A stretch of 63,117 nucleotides of DNA, counting the filler, from Klebsormidium nitens (taxonomy: Eukaryota; Plantae; Klebsormidiophyceae), in assembly GCA_000708835.1 (NCBI GenBank). It is 4 parts of 4 records of this genome, joined end to end, with 100 filler letters (N's around TTAATTAATTAA, not from the genome) between each part and the next. Parts side by side here need not be neighbours in the genome. Positions count along the whole stretch, not along the records: positions 8,599 to 38,748 come from DF237780.1; positions 38,849 to 59,682 come from DF237922.1; positions 59,783 to 63,117 come from DF238168.1; 1 more part is not named here. The stretch is one strand, 5' to 3'. Below the pieces are notes generated by a model that was given only the letters and a program-made list of their open reading frames with translations, made no database searches and had not been told where the DNA came from. Position 1 is the first letter of the stretch. Each line of letters starts with the position of its first letter. This document shows, piece after piece, positions 33,983-63,117 of this stretch. Made by a program: the position numbers and the translations under genes.

Positions 33983-34032
33983 CACCCATGCCCCGTCCCC
34001 CGTTCGTAAGTCCGAACGATGTTCGACCGATT

Positions 34033-34578: not shown

Positions 34579-34941
34579 GATAAAAACGCATCAGGGTTCG
34601 GCGTGAAAGCGGCTCCCCCTGATGCGTTTTCGGAGTCTGTCTGTGGATAACTAAAAGCATGCCCCGTCAAATGTCCACTCGTCAAGCAGAATGCACTATT
34701 AAATGCGAACGGCCTCCCTTGGCTTATAGAATACCTCCCTTGTTATTTATCATAAATACTTTAGCTGATATTTTAGACCCAAAGCGCTTCGATGAATGAT
34801 CGGAATTTTAAGTGTCTCAAAAACTCAAAAAAGATGCCTATAACTCCTTGGAATAAGGCCTCGCGGAATCGGGCTTCCTTACCCGCGGCACTTGCTTCGA
34901 GGTATTCTGAAAATTGTTTTCTCAAGTAAGAGTATCGTCCC

Positions 34942-35994
34942 ATGGCAGCTAACCAGTCAGCACCGGCAAACGAGGAGGACGTTAAAAGGGTGATATGTGG
35001 CGAAACCTTCTGTCATAACCTACTAAATGACGGCATCGCAAGGGCCTCGACAACCTGCGAACAGTACATGAAGAGCTTGATTGTGATGTATAAGCTGCTG
35101 AATCGAGGAACGGTTATGCCTCCCAACATTGAGTGGGTCCGCGACGATGCTGACCTGCTCATTGACTTGCTGGAGAAAAAGTATCCAAACAAGGGGTCGC
35201 TGTGCAACAAATACACCCCGTTGATGACCCTGTCAAAGCAGCAAGGGTGGATGTAGGTTTACAAGCAATACTACCTACGCTTTGTGCTCGCAAAAAATGT
35301 GCAACTCTGTAGGGCCGGGTCTCAGAAAGCGACGGAAAATGAGGAGGTCAATTGGATCCACATGCAAGAGGTCAAGGATAAAATGGAGGAGTTAGGACGG
35401 CGCATAAGACGACAGCTCCTTCCTGAGTTCCGCGCGAGCAAAAAGCTGCTCGTGAGGGACGAGGTGAAGGTAGTGTTCCAGCACCTCGTGCTGGCGGCAA
35501 ACGTTCTCGAGCCTCCCAAACGGCGTGATTGGTGCAACCTTCCGATTCGGAAATTGGACGGCACCTTTCATAATGAAGCAGCGAAGGCCATGTATGACAA
35601 GTTTGGTAATGAACTGGTTGAGAAAGCCGCCGAAACGTATGTCTTGGTCCTGAAGACGTTCAAAACGGCCAAGAAATACGGTCAGCAGTAGTTCGAGTTG
35701 CCGAAGAGATTGTCTCATTATATACAACGTTCGCTCGAGCTCGTTCCCAGGGGTTATTTCATAACATTGCTGAGCGACCTCGGGCAACCCATGGGTGACG
35801 ACTATTGGACGCAATTCGTTCGAGAGATCCCGTTTTCCAGGGGCCGTCATCTCACGACCAATCACTTGAGGCACGTATTTGTGACCGACTGCTACAACAA
35901 AGACGCCTCTCTTTCCGATAGACAGTCCGTTGCTGGCCGAATGCTGCACAGCGTGTCAACTCAGATGCGTAGCTACGAGAGAAAGCGCAGCTAA
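34942..35994 (+). pseudogene. Tyrosine recombinase (virophage/PLV/giant-virus OLV11-like), copy 1, with two in-frame stops
   Basis: ORFs 34942..35256, 35284..35691 and 35698..35994 share one frame. Catalytic set R (EPPKRRD), K (LKTFKT), HxxR (NHLRH), H (RMLHS) and Y (SYERK). TAG at 35254 and 35689. Confidence 0.9.
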
Positions 35995-36260
35995 GTGACC
36001 TCGATCAACCCGTCGCTGACAAATCTCAGCAGGTTGTCTCCTTCTTGTTGGCTTTCAGGGATTCTAGATCCCGCCACAGGGTAACCGGCCGCAAGCAACC
36101 TGTCGAGGGTCCTTTGTTGAGTTCTTATGCCGCTTTTGTACCTTTCGAAAGCCTTGGTCAACAGGATGTCGTTTCGGTTCCGAATGTAGTAATCTTTGAC
36201 ATGTTCGCTGTGCTTGCCGGGGTTTTTCTCGATGTAACGCCTTTTCGTTTTGCAGGTCAC
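35991..36260 (-). CDS. Small basic virus-like protein, convergent with and overlapping the YR stop
   Basis: RRYIEKNPGKHSEHVKDYYIRNR resembles the KYYEKN...YY..N motif common in giant-virus small ORFs. The two stop codons overlap at CTAA. Confidence 0.55.
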   Translation of the reverse strand: MTCKTKRRYIEKNPGKHSEHVKDYYIRNRNDILLTKAFERYKSGIRTQQRTLDRLLAAGYPVAGSRIPESQQEGDNLLRFVSDGLIEVT

Positions 36261-36404
36261 GCAAAGGACACGTGCGCAGCTGGTTGGTGTAGCTCAATTC
36301 GTCGATGGTATGATCGGCCATTCGCCCGTTGAAGTTACGAACGAAAAAAAATCCCAGTCCGTCCGCGTTCGTGCGACGATTTTTATCTCGGGAGATCCTA
36401 AGGC

Positions 36405-38748
36405 ATGGAAGCCAACAACAACTCTCGCGCTCTCGAGCACACCATCGACGCGCCTGGAATCAGGACCTCAGAGGCTCTGCCTCCTGACAAGGAGGATGCG
36501 GCAACCCAGGGCACGTTAGACCTCAGGCCTACGTCCAACGGTTTGAGCATCAGAGATGAGATTCTACGCCTTGCTGACCACGGATTGTATGGGATCCCGG
36601 TGCACATCAAGATCGATGCTCGTGCCAAGAAGCGGAGCCAGTTCCCTCCCACTTACAAGCACATCGTCACCGTGGGAGATTGGGAGGAACACATCGGCGC
36701 AGTTCTCGATGCATTTGAAAAACCCAACGGAGTGGCCATACTGACCGGCACGAGCGGTTTGTTTGTCATAGATATCGATGTGGGAGAGAGCAGCGATAAA
36801 AAATCGGGAATGGAATTCTGGCACGGGCAAGTGATGGAGCATGGGGAGCCTGAGACTCTTTCCGTTCGCACGGGGTCTGGAGGGCTTCACTACTACTTTC
36901 GGCTCGATAAAACCACCGGCTTGCACAAAACTACCAATTTTGCTGGACTCACGCTCGATGGGGAAAAGTTTGGCGTCGACGGCCGCGGCACCGGAGGGGT
37001 GATTTTTGCACCCCCGAGCAGGTACGGGGAAGGCACGGATACATGTTGCGAGTACACGTGGGTGACCGGAGGCAATGGTAAGATCAATGGTATGCCCCCG
37101 TGGCTTGTGAGCCTGATCAACCGAGGGCGCGCCTCGGAAGGGGTCTCGAGAAATGCAAACGGCCGAGTGCCTCACCATAAGGAAGCCGATTCCGAGGAGG
37201 TCGTGCCAAAGGCCGTCGACGACGCAAAGGCTGGCGGCCCTGCAGCCAAGGCGGCTCCGTTTTTGGCGCACGTGGAAGTCAAGCAATTGGTAAGGGAGAA
37301 GGCAAAGGATTGGTGTTCCTTCTATACCGGCTCGACGGTCTTACCGGATGGCAACAGATCGTTTCAGTTCAGGGTCAATGGTCCACGCCAGTGCTACCTG
37401 GGAAAAATGCACAGAGGGTCCAATAATTTCACGGTAATTCAAGGGTGCACCGGTGACTTCCAGGAGCTTTATTACAATTGCTTCGGGTCCGGTTGTTGTG
37501 GAAGCAAGCCGAAGCTGCTGGGGCGTCTCACGATAGCCGGTGCTCTCGAGCAAGCTGGGGGTGGTGCTTTTGGACCCAAGGACCATCAGCCGTCGAGCCT
37601 CAATAAGCTGGCCGCTAGATTTTCCAACCCATTCATGTTGTCCAACGTGGGCAAGAGCGATTTCGGAAGTGCTCTGATATTCAGCAAACTGTTCGAGCAT
37701 GACAGGCGGGTGGTGTACGACTCGGGGAGATTCTGGACGTGGGATGCAACGAGTTAGGTGCCCTCCGATATGGAGGCAGCTCTGCTGAAGACCTCGTTCA
37801 TGTACCACATGGGGCGGGTCAAATCGTTTTGGTGCGATCGCCTTGAACGGGCTTTTGACGAGAAGTTTGAACAGCTTTCGACTCGCAGAGACATTGCTTT
37901 GAACGAACTTCAATCCCGGGCCTCGCAAAGTGCAAGACAAGACCAAGAAAGACATCTTGAAGGGCATCGAAAAGGCAGAGAAGGCTATCATCGCAAACTT
38001 CAAGATGGAGTTGAAGAAGACACCCGCACCGGTGTGGCATGGGGCGGAAGTCGAGTCTGTCCCCATCGCCCACAGGTGTCTCATTCCTCTGAAAGTGAAT
38101 TTACGTGTGCGGGATTTTGCAAGCTCGCTGAATGCCAATCGGGACTACTTGAACACCACATGTGGCTCCATCGACCTCCGAACGGGGGAGCTCGTTGCTC
38201 ACCATCCAAGCAATATGCTCTCAAAGGAGATTGACACCCTTTATGAGGGTGCCAGTTACCCATCGCCGCTCATCGATCAATTCATGGCTGAGGTGCTGAC
38301 CGAGGACATAGTTCCCGTTATGCAAATGACACTCGGGTATGGCATCACTGGGCACAGCAAGGAGAAGCAATTCATCGTTATGCATGGCCCGACGAACAGC
38401 GCAAAGACAAAACTCGTCACCATGCTCCGAGAATGTACTGGACCCTACTGCGTTTCGATGGCCCGCGACTGCGTCATTGGCGCAGGTCAGCACTCAGAAG
38501 GGGCCGCCACGCCGCACCTTCTTATGCTTGATGGAGCGCATATCGCTGTCCTCGAAGAGACTGAGGACTCGGATATATACAATGGAGCATCGGTTAAGGC
38601 GATTGCATCCGGCGATGGGAGCATGACCGTAAGAGGGCTGCATAAGGACCCCGTTGAAGTCACTATGAGGTGCCTACCGATCATATGCACCAACTCATTA
38701 CCAAAGTTCAATGCGGGAGACACGAGTACCCTCAATAAGCTGAGGATC
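36405..38748 (+). pseudogene. Bifunctional Prim-Pol - UL52-type Zn finger - D5-like SF3 helicase, disrupted and truncated by the gap
   Basis: Prim-Pol motifs NGVAILTG..GLFVIDID, VRTGSGGLHYYF, GVDGRG.GGVIFAPPS and YTW...MPPWL. ZnF CYLGKMHRGSNN...YYNCFGSGC. D5 motifs NANRDYLNTTCGSIDLRTGEL, HGPTNSAKT, IAVLEE, KAIASGD and IICTN. TAG at 37755 and a frameshift at about 37860-37930. Confidence 0.92.
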
Positions 38749-39061
38749 NNNNNNNNNNNNNNNNNNNNNNNNNNNNNNNNNNNNNNNNNNNNTTAATTAA
38801 TTAANNNNNNNNNNNNNNNNNNNNNNNNNNNNNNNNNNNNNNNNNNNNAACGTATCCTGAACGGTGACATCGGCTCACTGAAGCCGATCCATCCGGGATA
38901 TTACGCCGTCTTGCAGACAGCTGCGCAGTGCGTCGTTAAGACGTAACCACCGCCGTTTCGCTAACTCGCGGTCAACGAAATCCTGTCGAGAACGAGGTTA
39001 GGCTTAACCAGTCGTAATCGTTACAGTCACCAGCTGGGATGATCTCCCAATTGACGAGCTG

Positions 39062-42000
39062 TTGGTGGAGGTGGGGAGGGGGTTTGCACTGGGGGCCCTG
39101 CAAGGACTTCTCGGAGATGAGGAGGGGGGGCAGGAGCTCTGCCAGCAGGAGGGGGGGGAGGAGGAGGTGGTGATGGAGGTTGGTGGGGAGGAGGGAGAGG
39201 AGGAGTTTCTAGGGGGGGATGAGGGAGAGGAGGGGATTGAGGAGACAGTGGAGGGGGAGGAGATTGCGGGAGAGGAGGAGTTTGAGGGGAGGGAGGAGGG
39301 AGAGGAGGGAGCAGAGGTGGAGCAGGGTCTCCCAGGAGGGGAGGAGGAGGGACAGCAGGCGAGCCCTGCGTACCCTGCGGAGTATGCTGACCAGCAGGTG
39401 AGCAAATTTAGAAACAGCAAAACAGCATGCTTTTGTTTTGACGTAGAGTGTCCCTTAGTGTGAAGTTTGTTCTACCAAGGTGAGGTGCGACAGAATCTGG
39501 CGGGAATATGACCTCATAGGTAGTTTGTATTCTGTTCTCTATTGCAGAAGATGTATCTGCTGAAAGCTTTCAAGAACATGTGATGCACACGCAGATGGCA
39601 AAGCACGCAAGAGTGTTTTGTGTCGCTTGCCATCCCTTTGTTCAATATATATGTCCTGATGCTGGTCATTTCTATCGATTCACCATTCGGCTGCTACATT
39701 GCTACTAGACTTTCTGCATTACGTAGAAGATAAGGTCATACTTTTTAAGTGTTTTGTTCATTGTCGATTCTCTTTGCTTGTGTTACACGTGTCTGGTTGT
39801 GAATGATATGCCAAGGTGCAAGTTTATCACAATGTCACACTTCTCATGATCATTTTTTCAAAGAGTTTGTCAACGTTGTCTAGAACAGAATTTTCAACTT
39901 GTCTTTGATTGGCAATCAGGAAGCTAAGATTCGCTCGCGACAGATCCTGCATTGCAAAACAGTACGATGGCCAACGACGCGTGTGTCTATTCACCCAATT
40001 TCTTTGCTTCTTGATGAAGACACCTCTTCCCTGTTCTCGAGGTTTCTCAATTTGCTAGATTGACTCATCAGTTTCAAATCTTCCTCCTTCCAGGTAGCAT
40101 CCTCCAGGGCCTCAGAGGTGGCGCCCTGCCCCCCCGCCGCTGCCCCCCTGGTCTCAGTCCCTCCCCCGAGCAGCCACGCACACGACCAGGGGGACAGCTG
40201 CAGGGCGCAGGAGAGCCCCCTCGAGGTTTCCCTACTCGGGGTGGGTTTGTTCAGCGACGACGCGTTCGCACCCCCGGAGAGCACTCCCCCCAGGTTCGGC
40301 GTCTTCTCCGGCCCTGACTTTGACCTGGAGGCGCTCCCTACGCCCAGCCCGCGCGCCCCAGGCGCCCAGTCTAGTTCTCCTTGCCCCGCCCCGCTAGCAG
40401 AGACAGTAGTTTTGCTTGAGGCACTCCTTGGTAGCGACGTCCTGGCGGCCGTCGCGCTCTCGCCATCCGAGCAGCATCTGCTGTATTCATTTTACAGCGA
40501 CACGGAGGAGACGGTCACGAGCGATGACGTAAGCGAGGGGGATGAGGATCAGGAGATGGGGGGTGTCCTGGTTGATGAGGAGGTTGGGGACTCCCGGTGG
40601 CGGAGGGGGGGCGACACGGCGCTGGTGCAGGCGTGGCTGCAGCCGCAGGTCAGCAAAAGCTCCCACTCAGTGATCAGAATTATGAAGTTTAATTGTAATG
40701 AAGAGATTTATAACGAAGACAGAGGGGTTGGATCTGAGGGTAGGAATGGCCTAAAAAGAAACCACAATTGCAACTTTACAAGGGGCCACCGTTTTGAAAG
40801 ACATCTTGTTGCAAGTTTCCAGGATGTGAATTTTTCGAGGTTCTGCTTAGTGGAATACTTTGATTGAGTTTCAGCCTGCAACATTGTCAATCTTCTGGAG
40901 GATCTTGCTGGAACTGGGAAGGCTGGGAAAGCTGGGAAAGAAAAGTAACTCAATCTGTTCCTGCTGTGCATTAGGATTGGGAAAGAATAAGTATCTTAAT
41001 CTGTTTCGTTTTTGCTTGCAGGAGCCGGCGGAGGACCAGCATGCCTTCCTGGCAGCAGCTGGCCTCGAGTATTACTCGAACATGTCGTTTCTGCGATTGC
41101 TGGGCAAGGTGAGCTTAAGACTTTCGACTGCCGACTTTTCCAAGAAGCTGTATTCCCCTTGCCGTATGACTTAATCTGTTGGAAAAGCACTGTTCTGAAA
41201 TTCAGATCAATCCTCTTCCGGTTGCGCCAAAGTCATGCCGAGCGTGTGCGCGCTGATTCGAAGAGCCACTTTCGTTTGTTTTTCAAGTAGATTGCCAAAA
41301 CGAAGGCTCTTGTAACGATATGCTGGGACCGAGTGGAATCAATCTGCATCTTTTGAAAATCGACGGAGTATTCAAAGTCTCCAGGAGTGCCCCAACTGCA
41401 ACAGCTCTGTATTGACATTGTGCATTATCTTTCGCAGGGGGGCCAAGGGATCGTTTGCCTCGCCACTGGCTTCGATTCTCAGGGCGAGTATTGCTTCCTG
41501 GCCGCCAAGTTCCTGTTCCAGGGCTCAATGCTGGAGGTGAGCAAGAAGACTTCCGTAGGCTCTCTCCTCGGTTCATTCTCTCTGACACTAACAAGGGCCT
41601 GAGTGGCAGTTTTTAGCAGGTACAGGCGCAAAGCGCGTGAATGTTAAGATAAGGGTTGTGCTTAACGTCTTTTGGCCGTTTGCGTAGCCTTAGTCGAACT
41701 TGGCTTCGTGAAAACATGACCTTGAAAGGTAGAAAACTCCGATGGGTCTTCCAGATGTCACTCAAAATGACTGCAGATTGGCTTCTGTGAAAAAGCATCG
41801 TCGTATTTTGTCCAAAGAAACACTAGGATCAGAATCTTCTAAAGACACCAACCATAAAAGTCAACCTGACTTAGGTCAAGTTCCGAGACACCATAGCACC
41901 AAAGTTCGTACAACTGCACTCGTTTCAAACTGGGAGCCTCTCGGAATACTTGACGCCGTTCTCCTTCCTTCGATTTGCAGGCGAAGAACCTCATCCGGTG

Positions 42001-44053
42001 CCGCGACTGCCCACAGATTATCCGCTTCGAGGGTTACACTCTGTATGAGGGGGCGCTGGGCCTGCTGTTCGAGCTCGCGAACTCCCCCCCGGACTGGAGC
42101 GTCGCCGGAGCCACCCCCGATTTCAACCCCGCCCGCCTGTACGAGATCGCGCGCTACATGTGGCACGTGGCGGGCGCGCTGACGTGGCTGCAAGAGCGCG
42201 GCTTGATCCACCGGTGAGCAAACCAATGGTTCTTAAAGCGAGCCGGAAGCATTTTGAATACTGCATAGAATGCAACGGGTTTGAATGTGACTCGAGACAG
42301 GGTCCTGATACTGGTTTAAGAAGGCACTGGTGGAGACGAAGCTGGAAGACATGCGTGACAGTCCTGGCAATTGTATGCCTCTCAATATCCCGTCTTCGTT
42401 TCTGTTTCGTTTGAAAAGACGGAAGAGCAGATGTAGACAGCGCAATGCGTCTGTGTTAGATGTCAGCACAGTTTTAACTGCCCCTCACAATGATCATTGG
42501 TTCCCACTTTTCTCACCGTCCGAGTCTGAATTGTAACCGTCTCTCATCTTCGAGTCCGTGTCCGCATGTGATTTGCTTTTTCCTCTGCTTCCGTTGGAGA
42601 AATGCAGGTTTGATGAGGAGACAGCCGAAGTCTGACCAGTCTTCTTTTTCCGCGCAGGGACATCAAACCGGAGAACATTCTCGCCAAGGACGGGGTCGCC
42701 AAGCTGGCGGACTTCGGACTGGTGACTTCAGCCGAGGAGGCGGCACGGGGCGGCGACGTGGGAACACCACCAGCTGACTCCCTCTCTTGCACAATTTCGT
42801 TGGTCAAGCCATTTGACATGCATGGGAAGGAACTTCTGATCGAAGCTCTAAAATCGTCTGCAGAGTCTTCGGATTCCCAAATCTATCACCTGTGAAACTG
42901 AGACTCAAAGTTGTTTTCACTGGAAGGGATCTCTGCGCACTTTACCGCAGTCGTGGCTGCTTCCTAGGTTTCTCCATCAATCTGAACTTCCTTCTCGCAA
43001 ATATATTTGGACAAGCATGTCAGAAGTCCATGAACATGGTTCGTATCTGCTTGAGCATTTGCAGTAGCCTCACTTCTCATCCCGCACGCACGTTTACGGT
43101 GTCGCTCAATCCGTAGCTCACGTCTTTTCTCAAAACCGTGTGTACAATGCGGCACGCAGGGCTACATCGCCCCGGAGGTCCACGTGGAGCTCTGCCACAC
43201 CTCCGCCTCCGACATCTTCGCCGCTGGCGTCACCCTGCACAATCTGCTGACGGGAACGCAGCCGTGCTTGGAGTTTTCGGACACCGAGGTCAGCGGCGCT
43301 GCTTTTATTTGACGGTCCTCCAATTGCTTCGTCGTTCCTTTGGAAGCTGTGCTGGAGTTCCTTCGCACTTTGATCTCCTTCAACCTCGTTCCATCTACCT
43401 ATCTCCCGTGTGTCTTACCATCTCTCCATCCGTATTGCTTGTAGTCTCGCCCGGTTCATTCTTCTCCCCTGGCACGTCCTTCCACCTCCTTTTCTCTCGT
43501 TCTCATATTCTAGTCATCCCCAATCTCCTTCGTCTACTTCGTGCTTCGTCCTCGTTCCACCGCGCTCCGTATCTATTTAGTAACAGGGCTGCAAGCACAG
43601 GAAGGTTTGGCTTTTAACCGAACCTGGTTAAAGACAAAACAACCGCTTTCACTCAGCTGTCGTAAAAGGGCATCTAAGTAAAACCCGGACTTGGTTGACG
43701 ATCCTCTTTTCTTGTGAAGAATGGCTCGCAAAGTCGCCTCGTTAACAATGGTCTAAGCTTCGCGTTTTTCGAAGTCCTACATTGGGCAGTGTTGCTTGAA
43801 TCTGGTGACTCGTCCGCGTCCATTTCTAAGGTCTCCTCCTTCTTCTCAGGCCCTCCACTCCCATTTCGACGAAGGGCTGCGGTACACGTGGCCGTCCGAG
43901 ATCTACGTGTACGGTTCAGAGCTGGTGGCGCTAGTTGAGCGCTGCTGGCACACGCTGCCCGAGCGGCGGCCCACCGCGGCCGCGCTCCAAAAGGCGATGT
44001 TCGGCATATCCCTGAGGCTGAGCCGGCTTCCGCGCGCGACAGCGGCCGCGTGA
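39062..44053 (+). CDS. Ser/Thr protein kinase with a Glu-rich N-terminal extension (multi-exon)
   Basis: Exons up to 39397, 40094-40648, 41022-41108, 41438-41536, 41981-42213, 42658-about 42769, 43160-43288 and 43850-44053 give LGKGGQGIV, AAK, HRDIKPEN, DFG, GYIAPE, SDIFAAG and CW...RRPT. The true start is unresolved. Confidence 0.9.
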
Positions 44054-47000: not shown

Positions 47001-47854
47001 TGCTGTGCTGAATGTGTCAAACTTCTGCACAGCTACAGGACTTTTCAAGGGAAGAGCTACTAGCAATGGCTGATTTTACCACACGTCACTGGGCATGTTA
47101 CCTCTTGGAGACGACGGATGCTAGTCGGTATGGTCGCAAGATTTACATTGGGTGAGTGCTTCCATCTCTGCCTGGTGTCCATTCTGTTTTTGGCAGTAGG
47201 TTTGAGCTTGTGTTCATATTGCATGGGTAAGCATGGGTAAGCAAATGAGCTGATAAGCTGCCAAGGCTCCCCTGAATCAGAAGGGCTTTCAGCAGCTGAG
47301 GATTTCAGTAGGAGGTTGCTTGAAGCCCAAAGCAACAACCCTCTCATTGCTTATGATGCGGTGGCCCATTTGGAGCTAAGAAATGTATTAAGGTCTGAGG
47401 CCCCTAGTTGGACAGAAATGCAAGGAAAGTCCTAATACTGGCCACATTGTGATTCATGTGTCCACCTGACAATGTTGTTTTTGTATCAGAGTTCTCTGGT
47501 TAAGTTGACAACTGTCGCTGAGTGCACGCTTGGTTGTGATTGGCTGCATACTTTTTGGGCTTTTTCAGCACATCTGCAGTGCATGTGACTGTTCTCCGGT
47601 CTATCATGTCTGACCTTTTTACGATTTCCTGTCTCACCTTAACGCTGATAACCAAAAGTCTGACTGCGACGTCACTAGCCATTTACCTCACTTACTTATG
47701 GTTGCAAGGACGAGGCAAGGACACTACACCGGAGCCTGAACTGTCATCACATCTGCTAGTGCATATAGCATTGGCATTTTAAAATACTTACGGCTAGATA
47801 AAAGGGTGCAGGCCCGTTCTGAACTCGGCCCATGTTACTGCTTTTGAACGGCAG

Positions 47855-48593
47855 GTACACTCACAACCCTACCCGGCGCCTCCAATGCCACAACGGAGAG
47901 ATTACTGGAGGGCCGGCCACAACTGCAGCCATGCGGCCTCTACGGTTCGTGGCCATCGTCTATGGTTTCAGTTCACAGAGGGAGGCTATGAGAGTAAGCT
48001 GCACATTTGGGTTCTTGTTATCTGAACCAGTCGTCGTTTCCAGCAAAGATGTCCTTTCAAATATTCTCGAAGCTGACGCTTTGCAAGCTAAAGGTTCTTT
48101 GATAGTGTTGCCTTTTATTGGAACTGTGCATTTAACTACAGACTTTTGAATATGACGCATCCTGTTTTGTTGAGCTCAGCTTTCTGCAAATCGCGCAGTC
48201 AGACAGGTCGTGCAGATTTTACTAGAAGAAGTACTTTCTGAGCAATTGTTCTGTTCGTTCTATCAACAGGGATTCTGTTTTGGGATGTCCTCTCTATCAA
48301 TGATTAGATCGGGAGACTAAGTGTAACAAGTGCAGATCAAGTAGGCTTGTATTCAAGTAGTCATGCGTCCAAGATGAGTTTCAAACAAAGAGCTCAAATG
48401 CTCAAATAATCCCAATGCCTCCTTACACACTTTAGTGTGTTCTTTTGCAGTTCGAGCGAGTATGGCAGTCGCCGAGATCCTACAGCCGCGATATCCGCCG
48501 CGAAGTCTCTGACCTCACACACAGGCAGCTTTCAGGAGTGGCGGGAAAGCTGCGCATCCTTGCAATCATGCTCAACCGACCGGAGTGGACAAG
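47855..48593 (+). CDS. SLX1: SLX1-like GIY-YIG structure-specific endonuclease exons (divergent)
   Basis: Exon 47855-47993 reads YTHNPTRRLQCHNGEITGGPATT...RPLRFVAIVYGF. Exon 48451-48593 reads FERVWQSP...GKLRILAIML. The splice is phase 0. Both match the SLX1 pattern RRLRQHNG.I.GGA / FEWAWQ.P. Confidence 0.75.
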
Positions 48594-53200: not shown

Positions 53201-55880
53201 TGGCTTGGAAGGCCTTCTTAAAGTAGTCGTAGTATGTCTGGTAGGTGACTCCCTGACTCCCTTTCTCGCGCTTTCGTTTTGTGGCACGTCCCGGAGCTAC
53301 AGGAGTGTCGTACCTGCAATATAAGCATGCAGAAAGGCTTGTTAATGAAGGAATTGGAAGTCTCATAACAGGCCCGCAGATGCACTGTTTCAAGATGACA
53401 TGCTCGAATACTCTTGGAGACAGAATTTTCTGCGGCAACGAAAAGATGTGAAGCACCTAGCTTATCACAGGGGATAAGCATCATTTGCAAAGTAGTCAAC
53501 GTACCAAGCTCTTCGACTGCTGAAGTCGGGGCACGAGTTCTCAGCCCGGTCTTGCACATGGAACCTGTAGAAGCTACGCATAGCCTCGGCTCCCACGCAA
53601 CAGTTGATCACGTTGCGGTGGCGCATTGCCCCGATGAACTTAGCACGTCCGTTCTAGAAGAGGAAACCCAAAGCTTTGATTTCGAGGGCTTGCAACAAAC
53701 CTTCGAGACCGTGAACAAACTGTTGAGCGGCAGCTTGACCGTGGAAGCGGGCCATGTTCAGGACATATTGGAAAGAGGCTCATAGCAGCTTGCAATTCTG
53801 ATCCGCAGGTCAGGTGTGAAGACACGACTCGTCATAAGAGGTGCGCGCACCTGGTTGGTTTTTTCGTTGCGCGTCACCGTTGCAAATACGTCTGCAACGT
53901 CCGGTCCGACAAACTGGAGACTGTAGGAAAACTGGTCTGGCAGCTGACGGTTTGTAGCGTCTTGTCCGCGACCCAACGCCGAGTTCAACCAGAGGAAGTC
54001 AGTTCTGCGTGAAGAGGACAATCGATGCGATGTGACGTCAGTCAGTGACGTCACAACTTGAGCGCCCTTCAGAAGAGAGAGATGGGTCCGGTTGCCACAA
54101 CGTACAGCAAGGATGAGCGTCGATGCTTGTTCTAATAAAGTGTACTTGCGCAAATCTGATCAACGAACTTGGGGCGTTCAGAAGAAGCGGGACCGCGCGC
54201 TTTTGCTGACGGATCTGGAGGCTGTTATGACAAAGAGAACCGAAAGGTCCTCGGTCTTGGAACCAACAAATGTCTGAGATGCAAAAGGTGGCGTGGCGGG
54301 GACAGATGGATGTCGAAGGAACAACTTAAATGTTCTGTGAGCTAGCAAGGTGAGCTGACAAATAGAGAGTATGATCTTGAGTACATGCCTAAGATGGATA
54401 GTTGTGGATGCTGGCGGCTCCCCTCTTTGTTGACGTCGCGTTGTGCGCAGAAAGTTCAGCCAATACTTGCTCAGTTGCTTGTACTGTTCTGGCGAATATC
54501 CCTGGCTGAGTCCTTTTTGGCGGTCTTGAAACTCCCTGCATGGATAATTGGAGACTACCATATACGTAAGGGTGTCCACCTTGGACAACTGATCGGGCGC
54601 TCTAACTGGTATGGAACTTGTCACCGTGGGAGTCACGTCACAATGTCAGTTCAGCGGCAAGAAATGCGACAAACCTGTGGCTTGTCTCCTATGGCCCTCA
54701 TTTAAATACAACTTTCGTTCTAGACTGAGGGACATACCAGATAGGTCAGAATGGGACTTGATCTGGAAGTGACTCATCACTCTATAAAATAGGCAAGGAA
54801 ACACTACGGTTGGTGCTTAAGAGAAAGGTCTTACTCTTTGGACTGGTTCGCGTCTCTTTCTTTGGCTGCTTTCAAGACATTCTGTACAGCCTTGAGCTTC
54901 CTTAGGTCTTGTACAATTGCGTCCGCACGCCTGGGGTACGTTCGATAAGCCCACTGAAACGCCTTAACGTGACTGTTAAGCCAACTGTGCGACTGCATAA
55001 CAGCAAGACATTGGTGAGGCTTAAAACTATCTCTGCAACATGTCGCCTCATAAGTAAGGCAGATGGCACAACAGATGTGGAGCTAACATAGGCATCTGCC
55101 CCTCGAAGTGTCCAGCGTTGCCGGATGCGCAGGAAGATTTGGAGGCCGGGCAGCGCAAAGCATCTATTGGTTTGACAGTCTATCACGCTTGAGAAAGCAC
55201 CAGTCACAATAGAGTTCAGAGTGACTTGTAGCTCACTCTTTTTTTCTTCGCCAATACGAACTTGCCCACTCCTGACAAGGTGACGGCGGGGACCCGTCCT
55301 CCCGTACGCTTGCCCCACCACTTTTGCAAACGGTTGCGTAAAGGAATTATTATGAGAAAGTATCAAGCAGGGTAAGCCTGGGGTAAATTGAACAACTACA
55401 GATCAGAACTGAAGCCACAAGGTTGACATCGGCCACAAGGTTGACACCATGTTGAAAGTTCGACCGTGGATAGAGACGAGGATATCAGTAGACTTTTCGG
55501 GTTTGTGCGGATCTGCCTTGACTGCGGCTTGGCTGGATAGAGCTATGAGCAGAACATACCTTGCTTTCTAAAGTGGCCCCCAACAGCAGATTGTTCAAAG
55601 TATCTTACTCTATAGTAGCGCGTGCCCCCTCCGTAGGATTTCTGCGTTGCACCCTTCTGCAAGTTGGCGTATGCTGTCTCAATTGCTCGAGACTGTTGCT
55701 CAGTCTCATCTTCTGGGTCACTGCCTTCGACATCACTGATTGGGTCATCATCGTCAGACCTTGCGCCACGCGGCGCCTCATCGTCATTAGCGTCCTCTTC
55801 CTCAGCAGCACGGCGCGCCTCTTCAGCTTCTTCCTCTTTCATTATTTGAACCTCCTCATCATCAGAGTCGGCACAGCGGG
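50201..55880 (-). mobile_element. CryptonF-type DNA transposon gene (YR + NDC10-II + GCR1_C), multi-exon and decayed
   Basis: Recognised segments: GATQKSY, DRQKGLSQGYS, RTDFLW...GRGQDATNRQL...KTNQ, GAMRHRNV..CCVGA, KAFQANGITSDKVVHAGR, LGQW...SYLTSLP...AGF...YVIPR..V.PPEELLQLVFPWL, IIFLQDAAVL...DPVF and the GCR1_C-like TVNDV.KEF..G.DG.KSI...WR...AASKLE. Confidence 0.9.
52010..52500. repeat. GC-rich degenerate tandem repeat inside a Crypton intron
   Basis: The unit GGGAA.ACC.GAACGGAGG.GCTC.GTTCCCCGGGG recurs near 52160, 52280, 52357 and 52435. Confidence 0.75.
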
Positions 55881-58800
55881 CAACCTAATCAGCGTGAAGC
55901 CAAAGCAGAGAATTACAAAGCCAGCACATCAATCTTGATTCACGTGCATTTTGATACAGGAAGAACTTTGACTTGAGCGCCACAAGGTCTAGTCAAACCT
56001 CGGTTGCCTGCTTTGGTCTAGGCTACGAGGTGAGCTACTCGTGGCATCTTAAGGTGGGGATTGCTCGAAATGATTGCTCAAAGGAGTCGAACAAGACCAG
56101 ATCAAGAGCAGCGATCAGCAATTGCATGACTGGTGCAACTCCGTGTTTGTTTGGTGTCGGCAAACCACTGAATAATTCTGCTTTGCACATCTGCAAGATT
56201 GAAGAAGGGAGCACTTGAGGAAGACTGCCACAAACCTGGGAAGCTGTGAGAAGACCAACGGGCATAAGCAACACAGCGAGCCCGGCTGGCAGGTTTCCCC
56301 AAAGCTTTTTGCCATGCTGGTGGACTGGATCATGGGCCTTCGAGTGGAAGCTGCATTCTGGGGTGCTATCAATGCTACTTGAAGCTAGCATGGAGGAGCT
56401 ACCTATTGCCCAGTTCCCTGGAGTTCCGGCACCGTCAAAAGCTGCAAGTGCTGCAGTTGCTGCGATGTCATAGAGCTCTGGCTGTGACTGCTCAGAGAGA
56501 ATCGTTCAAACCAATCCGAGAAAGCAAGCACCACCCTGATGGGTTGCTCTCAAAGTTCTCACACCAGCTTCAGAAGAATTGTTGGAGCACCTCCAGATGG
56601 CACTGGGGAGAGGAAGCTTACTAAAAACACTGTTAGCGAGTCTACTTGTCAGTTCTCTGGCACGCCAGACTGCAGAGAAGCGTGCTGCCATTGCTGATCC
56701 CTCAGACCAATAAATCAGGCCAACATAAGCGAGCTGACAACAAGATTGATGCACCCTCTCAGCCTTTTTCCTGTACTTGGCCTCAGACAGGTATTCGCAC
56801 TTCAGTTCTGCCCCCCTTCTTAGAGATCTCATCACAACGTCACCAAAGGCCTGACATCCTCCTGAGGCGGGGATAAGCTCAGTGCTTGCTGGCCCCGTTC
56901 CGCAGCTCCCATAAATCCCAAAATGTGCTGATCTGTGCTGCTCTGTGCTTTAGGCTACAACTCCTGAGTGCATTAATGGAGGTGACTGGAATGATAGCAA
57001 GTAAGGAGGCGGCGTCAAATTGGATGTACAGAACATTAGACAATCGGAAGTTACTTCTAAATTCTAATGAGATGAACCGCAAGGTAGCAGCAGTGCAGAG
57101 TCCAGACTTGCATGTATGATCTGCGGCGTTCGTTGCGCCGGGTGGCCGCAAAAATTTGATGACCCAAGGTCGGCGTCCACAAGATAACCTTTCAGTCTGA
57201 CCCGTCAAAAGATCTGGTGGACAGGTAGTATAAATCCGTGACAGGATTGTGGACAGGTATTTTAAATTCAGCGCTAAAAATTTGGCCCACAATTTTGGTA
57301 GACCTAATTCAGCCCTCACCGTGGACGGGTAACTTCTGATTACTTGACTTGGACTCCGGAAAACGTCAGAACAGATTTTGCAAGGCAAATCTTTGGAGGA
57401 CCGTGCAAAGTGTACCACCTAGCAACCTAGATACTACCGACCATGCAGACCGTTCTGATAAGACCGGTCACAGACTTCCGATCGCTTGCCTGCTCACTCT
57501 GCCCCTTCTTCCTGACACACCGGCCACTTTCCGCCGACAACTGATCACCGTGAAGTCTACCGGCGGTACCAGTGCGATCCTGCAAGCCGGTGTGTATAAC
57601 TGTCACATTCAGTGTACTTGTATACATATTGCGTTTCCAGTTTCAAAACCTCGGAAGGAACTTCAATTTCCTCGAGGAGCTTCTGCTAATATCCGCTGAA
57701 CAACCACGGAATCCGAGCCAAAAGCAGCACTCAAACCGTGGATTTCGTTTATTTTGCGCCACTTTCTGCACAAAATTGCTGAGGTACGGCAGATCGGCAA
57801 TTTAATAGGGATGTTTAAACTCGTGTATTTTATTTCGTCGGCGCAGAAAGTTCAAAGATGGAAAAATCACGCGGGGTCTAGACTCCAGAGTCCAGATCCT
57901 GAGGGCCATAGAGTCAGACCAGACCTGGGACTTGGCCCGAGTGCTCTGAACTTTGAAGTCTGTAGTCCAGCAGACTTGTGACTCAAGTCTTTGGATCGCG
58001 ACTCGCGACTCGTGACTGGCTCGCCGCTCTGAAGGTACCGGAGGCTGAAGTAGGGTACCTACGTGAGATTAGAACCCTAACCTAAGCGAGCCGGCATGCA
58101 TCCAACCGCCTTGTAGATTCAAATTTCACTAAGTGTCGCGCGCGCGGTACTTTTCAGTACCCCCGGTTCGACCGTCCAGATGACGTCCACAGCCACGTCC
58201 ACAGTANNNNNNNNNNNNNNNNNNNNNNNNNNNNNNNNNNNNNNNNNNNNNNNNNNNNNNNNNNNNNNNNNNNNNNNNNNNNNNNNNNNNNNNNNNNNNN
58301 NNNNNNNNNNNNNNNNNNNNNNNNNNNNNNNNNNNNNNNNNNNNNNNNNNNNNNNNNNNNNNNNNNNNNNNNNNNNNNNNNNNNNNNNNNNNNNNNNNNN
58401 NNNNNNNNNNNNNNNNNNNNNNNNNNNNNNNNNNNNNNNNNNNNNNNNNNNNNNNNNNNNNNNNNNNNNNNNNNNNNNNNNNNNNNNNNNNNNNNNNNNN
58501 NNNNNNNNNNNNNNNNNNNNNNNNNNNNNNNNNNNNNNNNNNNNNNNNNNNNNNNNNNNNNNNNNNNNNNNNNNNNNNNNNNNNNNNNNNNNNNNNNNNN
58601 NNNNNNNNNNNNNNNNNNNNNNNNNNNNNNNNNNNNNNNNNNNNNNNNNNNNNNNNNNNNNNNNNNNNNNNNNNNNNNNNNNNNNNNNNNNNNNNNNNNN
58701 NNNNNNNNNNNNNNNNNNNNNNNNNNNNNNNNNNNNNNNNNNNNNNNNNNNNNNNNNNNNNNNNNNNNNNNNNNNNNNNNNNNNNNNNNNNNNNNNNNNN

Positions 58801-59062
58801 NNNNNNNNNNNNNNNNNNNNNNNNNNNNNNNNNNNNNNNNNNNNNNNNNNNNNNNNNNNNNNNNNNNNNNNNNNNNNNNNNNNNNNNNNNNNNNNNNNNN
58901 NNNNNNNNNNNNNNNNGGCCCACCCCCTACTTTTAGTTCCGTTTTCAGTACTTTTCAGTACGTTGTGTACTTGATTTGGATTTTGAGCATTTTTGTCGAC
59001 GGTGCATGGAGATTTTCGACATTGTTATTGTCGAAACCCCGATAGGGAAGCTTATAGGTTTC

Positions 59063-59277
59063 TTATCGGATCGGCGTGACTTTCCGATAAGCAAAGTACC
59101 GATAAGGAGTTATCGGAAAGTTGCCCAAGTTTTGCGCCGATCCGATAAGGTTATCGGAAAGGTAAAGTCATAACTTTCCGATAAGGGCCAGAATTCCTTA
59201 TCGGATCGGCGTGACTTTCCGATAAGCAAAGTGCCGATAAGGAGTTATCGGAAAGTTAAACTTTACCTTTCCGATAA
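59063..59277. repeat. Array of 12 CCGATAA/TTATCGG heptamers with nested inverted and direct repeats
   Basis: Heptamers at 59063, 59084, 59099, 59110, 59142, 59151, 59178, 59198, 59219, 59234, 59245 and 59271. A 61-bp direct repeat has a 135-bp period, and there are two 11-bp-stem hairpins. Confidence 0.9.
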
Positions 59278-60076
59278 GAAGCTTTTTGGAAAGGCAAAAG
59301 TCGGCGGGTGCGAATCGCCCCTAAGCCCAGGCTGTCCACTCTACCTAAGGTACTCATACGGTACCCTAATTCTCAATGCAGTGTGCACAGGTTTTTCGGC
59401 GGCTGAGGGGGATTTGTACCATCATCATGCAGATTATGTTCGTCACAACCCTAATAATATCGAGCCTTTGCGGAGAACAGTGACAAATTCATGCAGTGCC
59501 GTGATTTCGGGGTCACGCAAGCAAGGTCTTATATATGCGTCTTATATATGTCACACATGGTGTATCGAAATCGAAATCGATGAATCATATAGACTGACAT
59601 GTATATATGTAACGCATGTAACGCTTTCGACAAATTGCATCGAAGCTGTCTCGCGATGGTTCACGACAGGCAAGAACATAGGNNNNNNNNNNNNNNNNNN
59701 NNNNNNNNNNNNNNNNNNNNNNNNNNTTAATTAATTAANNNNNNNNNNNNNNNNNNNNNNNNNNNNNNNNNNNNNNNNNNNNTTTTTTGGCGCAGCACAG
59801 TGGTAGTGCGGCCAATCGTTACAGGTGCATTTCAACCGGTCGTGTTTCCATCTGACGTCTTTGAATTCTAGAATCGAATCAAGCGGGCAGATTCGAAAGC
59901 CATTGCAGGTGGTAACGGCAAAGTTTGCTTAAGAACATACATCAGATTCAGGCTGTTCATTCTAGGAAGCCAAGATTTCTTGAACATGATTCCCTAGGAG
60001 ACGCATCTAAAGGAGCTTCGTTCGTTCAAGATTCCAGAATTATTTTGGATTGCTTAGGATATACAGTTGCATACTA

Positions 60077-61148
60077 ATGGACTTAGAAGCATCCGTTCAA
60101 TCGAGCTCCGAATCCATCTCAAATGAACGAGACGATAAGGAAAGTGTGCGAACGATAGCATCAGGCGAGACGGCTTTGCGCACCTTATTTCAAGACGGAA
60201 GGGCTGAGATCACGATTGTACAGTATCTTAACAGTCTTCGGATCACCTATCAGTTGCTTACTGGCAAGAACGTTTTGCCTTCTACGTTGGATTGGATCAA
60301 ATCCACTGATAGCATACTGGAAAAGCTCAGTGAAAAATAATGAGAATGCAGGTACATTGTGTAACAAGCTGACCCCTTTGATGGTTGTGGCTCACAAGCA
60401 GGGTTGGGAGGACACTCATAAGAAGTATTTCGATAGCTTTTCCAAGAAGAAGGTGGCTCAAATGAAGAAGGCCGAAGGACAGAAGGCGACCGTGAAAGAA
60501 GCTGTGAACTGGATCACCATGGACGAGCTCAAAAGCAAAGCGGAAGAGCTTAACAGGCAGATAAGGAGGAGCATCATGCCAAACCATAAAAGTAATGGTG
60601 GATCAAAGCTGAGCAGAGATGAAGTAAAAGTTGTGTATCAGCATCTCTTGATAGCCTTCAATACACTCGAGCCCCCTAAGAGAAGGGATCTCAGCGGTCT
60701 CCCTCTCCAGAAAGCGGACGGAAGCTTCTTTTGCGAAGAAGCCAGGGCAGCATATAAGGATACTGGAAATTGCCTTCGTGAAAGCACAGATGGCGATTTC
60801 GTGCTTGTACTGAAGACCTATAAAACAAGCCGGCGCTACGAAACACGCGAGTTTCAGCTCAGCCAGAGACTCAGCAACTACATCAAAAGATCCATCGAGC
60901 TCGTTCCTCGAGGTTTTTGTCTGTCTCGGTTGGGGGATACAACAGAAGCCATGAGCGATAACTACCTTACCAAATTCACTGGGTCGATAACGTTCCCTTC
61001 AGGGAAGCGTTTGAACCAAAACCACCTTAGACACCTTTACATCAGCGAACAATTTGCGAACGATCATTCAATTGCTGAGAGGAAGCAATTAGCAGAGAGG
61101 ATGTTGCACGACTGGGGGACAGCAATGGTTACATACGAGAGAAAGTGA
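60077..61148 (+). CDS. Tyrosine recombinase (OLV11-like), copy 2, with a single-base frameshift near 60338
   Basis: Removing one A in GAAAAATAATGAG gives LSEKYENAGTLCNKLTPLM, compared with LEKKYPNKGSLCNKYTPLM in copy 1. Motifs EPPKRRD, LKTYKT, NHLRH, RMLHD and TYERK are intact. Confidence 0.92.
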
Positions 61149-61168
61149 TAAGTGCAGAGTTGAAGTTG

Positions 61169-63117
61169 TCAAATATCAAGCGCTGAGATCAGTAAAGTTG
61201 GGTCAGAAGCCCAGGATCCGTCCCAATGGACTTCATCGACTCTCAAACGGACTTCTTGCAGCCGTTTTTCCAGTTCGTTCCTAGTTGGAAAGATCAAGCC
61301 GCGACCACTTGTGTCTTTGTAACCATCCAGTCCAAGTGTCCGTTTGATGCGACCTATCAACACGTCCTTCTGTTGGGGCGGGTCCTCTTTCGCGCCTTGA
61401 TTATCTATGAAGGATCTGTATGTTCGGAAGATGGTGGCGCTTAGCATCTTTGATTTCGAATCTGCTGAAAAGTTGCCGTTGTCCAGCAGACCGCAAATCA
61501 TTTTAGCCCAATATGGGATTGAGTGCTCCCTGAGAGCAGAGCTCCACTTGCTTACTGGAACTTGCTTGGGGTTCCAGGCATCGATGCCTTCTCTTGACAT
61601 CAAGTACCGGTAGAAGTGTTCAGCTGTAGTGCTGGTGAGGCTTTCACAAAGCCGATTGAAGTACGGTTGATCTCCGATTCTAGAGTCGGAGGCTTCGAAG
61701 CAAGCGTAACGGCGATCAATTGCCTCCTTCTTGATTGGCCAGTCCTCGTTCGTATTAAACCAGTAGTTAGCAAGATCGGGTACTTGAAGGGGATCGATCC
61801 CTTTCTTTTCAAGAATCGTTGTGTCTTGGGTGATCAGGCTTTTCAAACGGTTATTACTCTTGTATGCCCCACCCCAACTGCTCACTTCGTCGAAGCATAC
61901 CAACAGAAGGTTCGCAGCTATTCCATTGAACTTGCCAATCACTTTTTCCATTTCATTGCAATAAAGATAGTATCGAGATCCGATGACATGTTTGCCCACA
62001 AAATCTGTCACAATCGATTTGCCTGCGCCTTGGTCCGATCGAAACACGAGAGCAGTACCTATCTTTTTGAACGGCTTTTGAACAAAATGGGCCAACCAAT
62101 TTAGAATGTACTCCGCCACAGCAGGATCGTTGTCGGCCAATACCTCCTTGATGTGCTTCAAGAGGAGAGCGATCTGTTTCATGTCAACAGGTTGATTCGC
62201 TGCGTAAGCGTAGGGGAACCCGTAGAACAGGTTGTAGTTGTCAGGTGAAACCGCACGAAAGTTCGTTTCGAAGACTACCTTGCTGAGCGTCCTTCTCGCT
62301 GATGACTTGCACCACAGTTTTCCAAGGTTGCCTATCTTCAGGCTGTCCAGATTGAATGATTCGGACCGTTCCAGGAACTCAGCTCTTGTTCGGAGTATGC
62401 TGTCATTTGGCACCCATGCAGTGCCTCTTTCAACGAAAAGGGTCTCAATAAAGAGCACTTTTGAGCTGCCGTCTAGTACACAAAAGTAGTTGTTCATCGT
62501 GTCGATAGCAATCTGTGTGAGTTGTTGGCACATGTTTTGAGACTGCACTTTGTCGAAGTTGCTTTTGCTGCTTGATACGATTCTCTCCGCTTCTTCGATA
62601 GGGCGCAGATCAAACCGTGCTTTGGAATTCAAAAGCGAGGGCCAATGATGCAACCCAAGAAGAACTCTGGGGCGTTCTTTACATCCTGTCGATAGGCAAC
62701 GGTACTCCAATGTGATCCCATTGCTGATCAGGCTGAAGCTGTTGCTCGTGTGTTCCTCTCCATAAGGACATATCCTGCTCTCTTTCACTCTGAACTTTAA
62801 GATGGCTTCCCCATCTCGAAGCTTGATGCCTCTGTAGAAACTCGTTTGATCGTTGCATCTACTTCTCAGTAGCTGCGTAGCAATTTGGATTGCCTTTTCG
62901 GCCTCGATGGAAGAGGTTGCTTGCTGAGACAAGAAATCTGTAGTATTTATCTGCTTTGCCTCTGCTTTACTCACACTTGATGTATTATTCCTGGGGTGTT
63001 TTGTCGACCCCTGGGCAGCTTGCTTTGTGGAGTCTTGAGCGTTCAAGATATCTACGAGCCACAACGGAAGGCAGGCGAGCTTCGTTTTCCAAGGGGACTT
63101 TAGCCATGTGTATGAAT
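61169..63117 (-). CDS. Prim-Pol (mostly outside the window) - Zn finger - DUF5906-type SF3 helicase
   Basis: The frame is open to the right edge: SYTWLKSPWKTKLACLPLWLVDILN matches the Prim-Pol end YTWVTGGNGKINGMPPWLVSLIN of unit 1. ZnF CPYGEEHTSNSF...YRCLSTGC. Walker A SDQGAGKS, Walker B VCFDE, then LKSLIT, EKKGID, FNTN and DRRY. Confidence 0.9.
   Translation of the reverse strand, partial: SYTWLKSPWKTKLACLPLWLVDILNAQDSTKQAAQGSTKHPRNNTSSVSKAEAKQINTTDFLSQQATSSIEAEKAIQIATQLLRSRCNDQTSFYRGIKLRDGEAILKFRVKESRICPYGEEHTSNSFSLISNGITLEYRCLSTGCKERPRVLLGLHHWPSLLNSKARFDLRPIEEAERIVSSSKSNFDKVQSQNMCQQLTQIAIDTMNNYFCVLDGSSKVLFIETLFVERGTAWVPNDSILRTRAEFLERSESFNLDSLKIGNLGKLWCKSSARRTLSKVVFETNFRAVSPDNYNLFYGFPYAYAANQPVDMKQIALLLKHIKEVLADNDPAVAEYILNWLAHFVQKPFKKIGTALVFRSDQGAGKSIVTDFVGKHVIGSRYYLYCNEMEKVIGKFNGIAANLLLVCFDEVSSWGGAYKSNNRLKSLITQDTTILEKKGIDPLQVPDLANYWFNTNEDWPIKKEAIDRRYACFEASDSRIGDQPYFNRLCESLTSTTAEHFYRYLMSREGIDAWNPKQVPVSKWSSALREHSIPYWAKMICGLLDNGNFSADSKSKMLSATIFRTYRSFIDNQGAKEDPPQQKDVLIGRIKRTLGLDGYKDTSGRGLIFPTRNELEKRLQEVRLRVDEVHWDGSWASDPTLLISALDI

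Follow-up and report, generated by a model that had tools for sequence, protein, structure and literature searches.

A multi-copy tyrosine recombinase and primase-helicase element of Klebsormidium nitens, possibly an arm of endogenous Polinton-like viruses

Introduction

Polinton-like viruses (PLVs) with an OLV11-like tyrosine recombinase (YR), among them the PgVV/Gezel-14T group and entomopoxvirus-associated members, are integrated in several copies and carry the YR gene beside a primase-helicase gene with an exchangeable helicase (UL9, D5 or DUF5906). Cryptons are likewise eukaryotic elements moved by a YR, which is joined to GCR1_C or a peptidase; they have terminal direct repeats of 4-6 bp, and a circular intermediate has been proposed for them. 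In PICI/P4-type phage satellites the integrase adjoins a Prim-Pol with a D5/P4-type helicase. The Amoebidium 'Plavaka' giant repeats are large, capsid-free and YR-bearing in a protist genome; their description, as far as it is available, has them intron-poor and flanked by Plavaka transposases, and mentions no primase-helicase. The YR and primase-helicase module, common in PLVs though not universal, is reported in the accessible parts of PMC11296320 (section 8), PMC4642659 and PMC12220804. Seven K. nitens contigs (KFL_556, 572, 1558, 1713, 2520, 2626 and 2767) appear with PLV MCP matches in the supplement tables of PMC10120064, and four of these match a single reference at 71-86%. According to the available text of the same paper, endogenous viruses of such kind are without introns, and whether Polinton-like elements live as capsid-free true transposons is an open question.

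Here we describe two YR genes, each beside a primase-helicase gene (units 1 and 2), in a window of 63,117 nucleotides of K. nitens DNA. The module of the OLV11-like PLVs is present, as is the integrase and primase-helicase core of the PICI/P4 type. PLVs measure 15-30 kb and have terminal repeats or att sites; at least 14.2 kb is visible here, where the scaffold ends inside the primase-helicase gene. In contrast to PLVs, no capsid or ATPase gene is seen in these 14.2 kb, two replicases are present, coding density is lower, and there are predicted spliceosomal introns and intronic palindromes. A DUF5759-like gene, a related YR fold and, by prediction, introns in a viral-type gene are shared with giant endogenous viral elements (the NCLDV inserts of K. 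nitens and the punuivirus of Chlamydomonas), whereas the Klebsormidium family is repeated at 80-90% identity and has no NCLDV core gene in view. Unlike PICI/P4 satellites, it has a eukaryotic host, no terminase or interference genes were recognised, and the need for a helper is hypothetical. A literature search, thin on subscription papers, found no description of such a Klebsormidium element.

Results

The gene pairs lie on separate assembly pieces

The initial annotation had placed the two YR genes 25 kb apart. Three copies of one 100-bp block (N-TTAATTAATTAA-N), at 8499-8598, 38749-38848 and 59683-59782, are linkers, and the one at 38749..38848 joins two unrelated assembly pieces. The stretch 8599-38748 measures exactly 30,150 bp, the size of the record of KFL_008310030 (NCBI protein, K. 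nitens), which is 100% identical to the unit 1 primase-helicase, PP1. In addition, the alignment of P0223, a full-length PP1 relative of 901 aa, stops at residue 735 (base 38748), with none past the linker. The two gene pairs thus lie on separate assembly pieces of Klebsormidium, and the spacing of 25 kb is an artefact of the linkers. Visible are 14.2 kb at unit 1 and 3.3 kb at unit 2, both of which run off scaffold or window ends.

Recombinases and their adjoining primase-helicases

YR1 (34942..35994, + strand) is a PLV/OLV11-type tyrosine recombinase according to homology, HMM and structure, and its reading frame is interrupted by two in-frame TAG. YR2 (~60077..61148, + strand), recognised by HMM and by its match to P0001, is frameshifted near 60340, its two frames matching P0001 at 73% and 84%. 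An internal fragment of a third copy (24302..24448, - strand) corresponds to YR1 residues 278-326 with 90% amino acid identity; run X1 contains six variant contigs at this site (24388). YR1 and YR2 are identical at 130 of 271 residues (48%), and structural comparison of a family model gives a match to Cre recombinase (Foldseek probability 1.0, but E 3e-3; VIA Z 10.4, rmsd 4.5-5.0, 240-246 aligned), confirming that these are two homologous YR genes. The R, K, xxR, H, Y pattern is kept across 26 aligned YR relatives, and we take these residues to have the catalytic roles.

PP1 (36405..38748, + strand) combines a Prim-Pol, a Zn finger and a D5/P4-type SF3 helicase, as judged from Pfam (Prim-Pol 6e-16, D5_N 5e-9) and from relatives. 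Besides being cut by the scaffold end, it contains one stop (37755) and one frameshift (~37900). Its relative P0194 (875 aa, 86%) matches a PHROG DNA primase at 3e-51, and PP1-like proteins occur on four K. nitens scaffolds at 80-100% identity. YR1-like and PP1-like proteins occur on records of equal size, 5190 and 16104 bp (chance ~5e-5 in a simple simulation); the record sizes of 25 other primase-helicases gave no such match with those of YR proteins. In unit 2, H2 (61169..63117, - strand; Pfam DUF5906 2e-17, and relatives) has a Zn finger and a DUF5906/NrS-1-type SF3 helicase and is open at the window end. It starts at residue 223 of its relative P0181, past the Prim-Pol domain; judging from P0181 and a further relative, P0182, the Prim-Pol of unit 2 probably lies outside the window.

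The claimed adjacency of a primase-helicase to each YR therefore stands, as do the orientations, co-directional in unit 1 (YR1 +, PP1 +) and convergent in unit 2 (YR2 +, H2 -). However, the helicases are of different kinds, and the two replicase families share Prim-Pol and Zn finger alone (31-33% over ~320 aa). PP1 and H2 also gave no mutual tblastn match at 1e-3, and a single repeated unit is not supported. Nor are the genes intact, since three of the four (YR1, YR2 and PP1) are broken.

Unit 1 belongs to a larger repeated element

The visible part of the element with unit 1 extends over 24525..38748, truncated on the right where the scaffold ends. Similarity to a second copy, at 9134, begins at 24525; runs X5 and X6 give almost no cover left of ~24.25 kb, and this edge is provisional because an uncovered part proves nothing. 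Four other runs (X5, X6, X9 and X10) cover 30, 30, 29 and 29 of 30 bins in 24000-38748, piecewise at 80-99%, and no contig among those listed from these runs spans the whole stretch. Unit 1 thus forms the right end of a repeat that measures 14.2 kb or more and recurs, in pieces, in four other runs.

A second replicase gene (28970..33348, + strand) sits 1.6 kb upstream of YR1. By Pfam (Herpes_ori_bp 3e-10) and an HMM of PLV primase-UL9 proteins (6e-10), it has a UL9/origin-binding-type SF2 helicase, together with a Zn finger and an AEP-like primase, and it carries a frameshift near 29926 in this copy. The AEP-like part, a putative assignment from its motifs, had no match in PDB, Pfam, PHROG or a pairwise test, and its single-sequence model was useless (pLDDT 40). 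Frame analysis predicts three GT-AG introns on the + strand (30413-30821, 31588-31772 and 32687-32819), whose splicing opens one 919-codon frame; random GT/AG choices do so in 80 of 5000 cases. The genes had been described as intronless, which the predicted introns of this replicase contradict. The two-gene unit was also too small: unit 1 lies within an element measuring 14 kb or more, which holds this second, predicted-spliced replicase.

Several smaller ORFs complete the element. On the + strand these are a coding-like ORF at 27298..27612 (ORF list, codon score), with no match in Pfam or PHROG; a putative first exon of a small ORF at 28359..28596 (codon score), followed by a GT donor and then a palindromic repeat; and a lead to a giant-virus family, a DUF5759-like ORF at 33503..33982. 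The best ESM Atlas matches of the latter (0.82-0.83) fall in clusters of Nucleocytoviricota, DUF5759 being present in two of the three, and its Pfam match is below threshold (E 0.12). On the - strand we found an ORF of 181 aa at 34033..34578, in which four of the six variant sites listed are third codon positions, with no Atlas or Pfam match, and a small basic ORF between YR1 and PP1 (35994..36293, ORF list) with no family match in Pfam or PHROG. Within the assigned genes, third codon positions make up 17 of the 25 variant sites listed (p 4e-4; best 40 rows), an excess that points to purifying selection. CpG is not depleted within the element (observed/expected 0.96).

Seven palindromic repeats were identified in 25271..31665 by alignment, arm matches and folding, at 25271, 26267, 26640, 28649, 30470, ~30673 and 31604. 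Arms of ~15 bp enclose an AT-rich spacer of ~30-34 bp, and the first two introns predicted for the UL9-type replicase contain three of the seven. The arms gave 13 matches, all within 25271-31665, against 0.06 expected, and fold z-scores ranged from -1.2 to -8.2. No match was found in Rfam, nor any exact match to the pattern in viral contig and genome contig collections. A role as YR recombination sites does not fit, the spacer being 6-8 bp in PMC3212892. Contig joints between palindromes in other runs are probably mis-placements among repeats and were not used.

Capsid and packaging genes

No capsid, penton or A32 ATPase match was found in the window with 62 HMMs from 80 viral YR loci and with 1260 and 585 viral ORFs, and 24.5-28.9 kb holds no unassigned coding-like stretch of capsid-gene size. 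A Walker A scan (24450-38748) returned the UL9 site and one non-coding match, in a view that stops at the scaffold end. The capsid search was insensitive: Pfam matched a capsid family in none of six likely PLV capsid proteins, and many proteins that belong to other capsid clusters escape the capsid-cluster HMMs. The finding of no double jelly-roll MCP in the visible 14.2 and 3.3 kb is thus that of insensitive searches in units cut by ends. The claim that no capsid or ATPase gene lies beside the recombinase and replicase genes holds for these two stretches and reaches no further. Alignment-based scans of viral, metagenome and genome contig collections gave no locus of the Klebsormidium YR, PP1 or AEP kind, and a phage collection gave no match.

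The 80 viral loci (IMG/VR) represent a distant marine YR clade (alignment A8) and not the Klebsormidium clade or its sisters; 44 have a Pox_A32 ATPase, 34 a Capsid_N-cluster gene and 64 either. A primase-helicase of the UL9, D5 or DUF5906 kind, the same three kinds as in the window, is present in 41 of the 80, in 31 within 3 kb of the YR. Among the 27 capsid-bearing loci with a close YR-replicase pair, 24 have neither a capsid nor an ATPase gene within the pair, and a 3.3-kb view such as that of unit 2 is therefore uninformative on capsids. Other figures argue against a PLV arm at unit 1: a capsid- and ATPase-free stretch of at least 14 kb surrounds the YR in only 4 of 74 viral loci, two kinds of primase-helicase occur together in none of the 80, and ORFs cover 0.89 of the 62 viral loci of at least 10 kb, compared to 0.63 assigned in the element.

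Discussion

We tentatively prefer to read both gene pairs as decayed copies of multi-copy integrating elements of K. nitens, the integration and replication arm of endogenous PLVs. For the repeated, intron-bearing element of unit 1, the likeliest identity is such an arm, free of capsid genes, in an integrated PLV; the capsid genes would sit past the ends of the scaffolds. This is favoured by the HMM built from the 80 IMG/VR recombinases, which matches YR1 at 5e-27 and YR2 at 4e-25, by the signal of purifying selection, and by the seven PLV MCP contigs, of which the four at 71-86% resemble the PP1-like copies in number and spread. On the other hand, none of the seven has the same size as the 23,905-bp contig of unit 1, and the reported lack of introns in such endogenous viruses also speaks against an arm of this kind. 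Going by what is known of YRs and PLVs, the recombinase would excise the element in circular form for insertion at another site, and its priming, unwinding and copying would fall to the Prim-Pol/Zn-finger/SF3 protein. More speculatively, splicing by the host would let the second replicase act in the nucleus, where the AT-rich palindromes, by their likeness to herpesvirus oriS, may be its binding sites or origins.

A somewhat less probable reading makes the locus a self-replicating YR element that arose from a PLV or giant-virus module, lacks a capsid and is adapted to the nucleus; it would spread within the genome by excision, copying and re-insertion and could now and then be packaged by PLVs or a giant virus resident in the host. 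The 14.2 kb without a capsid or ATPase match, the combination of two replicases, three predicted introns, seven palindromes and low coding density that sets it apart from the 80 viral loci, the signal of purifying selection, and the several K. nitens copies with cover in four other runs would all suit such an element, as would YR and PP1 alignments that give no close IMG/VR relative. Possible helpers in the host are the PLV MCP loci and the NCLDV core genes recorded in the available part of PMC5294986. Against this, the right end is unseen, the capsid searches are insensitive, neither terminal repeats nor att or empty sites were found, and helper use has no evidence. A bolder form of this reading, about as probable, is that a capsid-less, self-replicating Klebsormidium family, living as a nuclear transposon or as a satellite of PLVs or a giant virus of the host, kept the PLV module and gained the UL9-type replicase with introns and palindromic origins. 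The earlier reading as a family survives as multi-copy elements with linked YR and primase-helicase that are neither Crypton nor classic Polinton; its capsid-less, satellite part is not established, as the same pair is an ordinary PLV module, seven PLV MCP loci exist and both units are cut.

Still less probable is that the locus is one section of a bigger endogenous virus, a giant virus or a small relative of the NCLDVs, present in several decayed copies. The DUF5759-like gene fits it, although the match is below threshold. In BFVD, the viral structures nearest to that of the modelled YR include several giant-virus proteins, but this collection under-samples PLVs. K. nitens carries NCLDV PolB, MCP, ATPase and VLTF3 genes (PMC5294986, available part), and 61 of the 506 genes of a giant virus latent in Chlamydomonas have spliceosomal introns, as stated in the accessible portion of 10.64898/2026.10.09.758095. 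However, none of the NCLDV core genes (PolB, MCP, A32, VLTF3) is in view in the 63 kb (Pfam, regions scanned; for 38849-58206, 38 stop-to-stop ORFs of at least 110 aa rather than all six frames).

A Crypton was rejected because replicases are linked to the YR, which matches the PLV family; the word 'helicase' is absent from the text of the Crypton paper (PMC3212892). A Polinton/Maverick was rejected as no protein-primed PolB or RVE integrase was found (Pfam, regions scanned) and the integrase is a YR. Chance neighbourhood, of a PLV fragment (YR and PP1) beside an unrelated intron-bearing element or as scattered debris, is very improbable. In its favour, none of the contigs listed spans the whole stretch or holds YR1 and the UL9-type gene in one piece, and GC at third positions differs (0.79 and 0.65). 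Against it, all parts have near-continuous cover in four runs, short pieces from other runs cross several gene junctions (32956-33507 and 35585-36295 among them), and YR1-like and PP1-like proteins occur on records of equal size.

Even as an ordinary PLV arm, the element, with two replicases and intron-borne palindromes, is unusual compared to the 80 viral loci. If the replicase is indeed spliced and under selection, its presence in a repeated streptophyte-alga YR element would directly test the question of capsid-free transposons, and a capsid-less family, if true, would be a eukaryotic counterpart of phage-inducible islands.

Separate scaffolds for the two units

The three 100-bp linkers, starting at 8499, 38749 and 59683, are identical (N44, TTAATTAATTAA, N44). 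The primase-helicase PP1 of unit 1 (36405-38748, +) matches the K. nitens protein KFL_008310030 at 100% identity across the part which that protein covers, and the protein's record measures 30,150 bp, equal to the span 8599-38748. In addition, the PP1 helicase frame entering the linker at 38749 has no continuation on the far side. Because of this record length and the interrupted frame, the linkers connect separate scaffolds, and units 1 and 2 need not be neighbours. The 25 kb reported between the two tyrosine recombinase (YR) genes in the initial annotation is an assembly artefact.

The piece between the units carries exon-sized parts of a host-type protein kinase (42656-43290, +) and an NDC10_II Pfam match (52619-52951, -; 3e-7), a Crypton-type YR-derived gene fragment unrelated to units 1 and 2. 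Clustered 64-bp repeats, direct and inverted and iteron-like, were seen at 59059-59277 on a 766-bp contig end. The first scaffold piece harbours a 1.07-kb tandem duplication (1563-3712), a GIY-YIG nuclease (5277-5600, -; Pfam 1.5e-7) and a C-terminal gene piece lacking a Pfam match (8308-8498, -), with what we take to be SF1/PIF1-like motifs.

Recombinases and replicases

As had been proposed, YR1 (34942-35994, +) and YR2 (~60077-61148, +) are homologous, with 130 of 271 residues identical. The window copies are decayed: YR1 contains two stops and YR2 one frameshift, and a third YR fragment lies at 24302-24448. Eleven close YR homologues were found, one of them in a 20-member JGI cluster, and the wider family counts 2110 representatives (E 0.001 or better). 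A third subfamily (P0005, P0006 and P0007; 45-52% to YR2) occurs in contigs from ENA and JGI, with lengths reaching 54 kb. None of 19 close YR sequences gave a Pfam integrase match, and Phage_integrase matches below the cut-off were obtained for 6 of 40 distant ones. For an AlphaFold YR model (pLDDT 66), Cre was the top-ranked PDB structure. Among viral structures the model matched giant-virus YR-like proteins, with a weaker virophage match; one matching protein belongs to an Aureococcus virus, listed in the accessible part of PMC4642659 as carrier of an OLV11-like YR.

PP1 combines a Prim-Pol, a Zn finger and a D5-type helicase, and its full-length relatives measure 875-901 aa. The replicase of unit 2, H2 (61169-63117, -), has a DUF5906-type helicase; Prim-Pol is present in its relatives P0181 and P0182. 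In BLASTP the two families are ~31-33% alike in their N-terminal 320 aa or so, with no similarity elsewhere: a common front end, joined to two different helicases. PP1-like proteins occur on four K. nitens scaffolds. Among the matches listed, two of eleven contig sizes for close PP1 relatives (5190 and 16104 bp) recur among 31 YR-contig sizes, as do 0 of 25 for more distant replicases.

A larger element around unit 1

Unit 1 exceeds its initially annotated two-gene extent. Contigs from four other runs cover 29-30 of the 30 bins of 24000-38748 at 80-99% identity, as many short variant pieces with no single spanning contig. The genes, their linkage and the existence of several copies are established, and the repeated element measures at least 14.2 kb (visible part 24525-38748, left edge provisional). 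In 40 listed variant rows (3898 further rows), 17 of 25 sites in assigned genes fall at third codon positions (p 4e-4).

On the upstream side of YR1, 28970-33348 encodes a second replicase, whose helicase is of the UL9 type (Pfam 3e-10). Once three predicted GT-AG introns are taken out, a single reading frame of 919 codons, counted from 29862, stays open; randomly picked GT/AG pairs close to these sites gave the same outcome in 80 of 5000 trials. The genes had been described as intronless, which would not hold for this one. Seven palindromic repeats, all within 25271-31665 (13 arm matches vs 0.06 expected), include three inside predicted introns 1 and 2 and one after a donor site. A DUF5759-like ORF (33503-33982), resembling giant-virus DUF5759, is a lead. 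The codon model found nothing beyond small ORFs at 24.5-28.9 kb.

A lone copy (74-82%) of the provisional left-end sequence lies at 9134-9620 (+), just after a telomere-like-word palindrome near 9105-9125. An HNH_3 nuclease fragment (23497-23694, -; 3.5e-8) is flanked by inverted repeats at 22635 and 23371, which recur across many contigs of run X1. Runs X5, X9 and X10 (X6 from 28095) show a backward joint of ~1.23 kb at 26866-28099, as if this stretch were tandemly duplicated, or formed a small circle, in other copies. In run X16, differences at 20500-27500 are nearly all C>T (161) and G>A (273), as in bisulfite libraries; listed pieces have 11/334, 18/312 and 19/365 differences inside the element vs 107/517 left of it, a weak hint of methylation.

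Comparison with viral loci

The comparison set comprised the best 80 of 165 confirmed places, scanned with a distant marine YR clade. An A32 ATPase was found in 44 loci, a Capsid_N-cluster gene in 34 and either in 64, rising to 74 once clusters labelled capsid-like by profile likeness are included. Since 41 of the 80 loci carry a primase-helicase of the window's three kinds, 31 of them within 3 kb of the YR, the pair is an ordinary module of Polinton-like viruses (PLVs), as the accessible parts of PMC11296320, PMC4642659, PMC12220804 and 10.1101/2022.07.28.501842 also describe. Accordingly, we favour, tentatively, the reading that the units are a PLV arm with capsid genes unseen. The accessible text of PMC10120064 gives seven K. 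nitens PLV major capsid protein loci, and its wording leads us to place these loci in the PgVV group; the unit 1 contig has no size match to these seven contigs. Unit 1 is odd against the viral set: two replicase kinds occur in 0 of 80 viral loci, a capsid- and ATPase-free 14-kb stretch in 4 of 74, and ORF cover is 0.63 for the element vs 0.89.

These differences would also fit a capsid-less replicating element, which we regard as somewhat less probable. No capsid gene was found in the window when 106 viral loci supplied 62 HMMs and 1845 ORFs as queries, a search weak for divergent capsids; their sole matches were the YRs, the replicases and a GIY-YIG gene. The initial statement that capsid genes are not recognisable beside the units holds at most for the visible DNA, which ends at 38748 and 63117. 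A giant-virus segment is unlikely, although NCLDV core genes are listed for K. nitens in the accessible part of PMC5294986, and that of 10.64898/2026.10.09.758095 describes a latent giant virus of an alga in which some genes contain spliceosomal introns. Chance neighbours are very improbable, with the stretch around unit 1 covered almost throughout in four other runs.

With a PLV arm as the preferred reading, the YR would drive excision and then insertion via a circle, the primase-helicases would copy the element, the host would splice the second replicase, and the palindromes may be its origins. The original proposal of a repeated capsid-less unit, possibly a satellite of a giant virus, drew in part on the assembly artefact and on a gene pair that PLVs were already known to carry. 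The part worth following is the intron-bearing, two-replicase 14-kb element, of which we met no published description in the literature searched.
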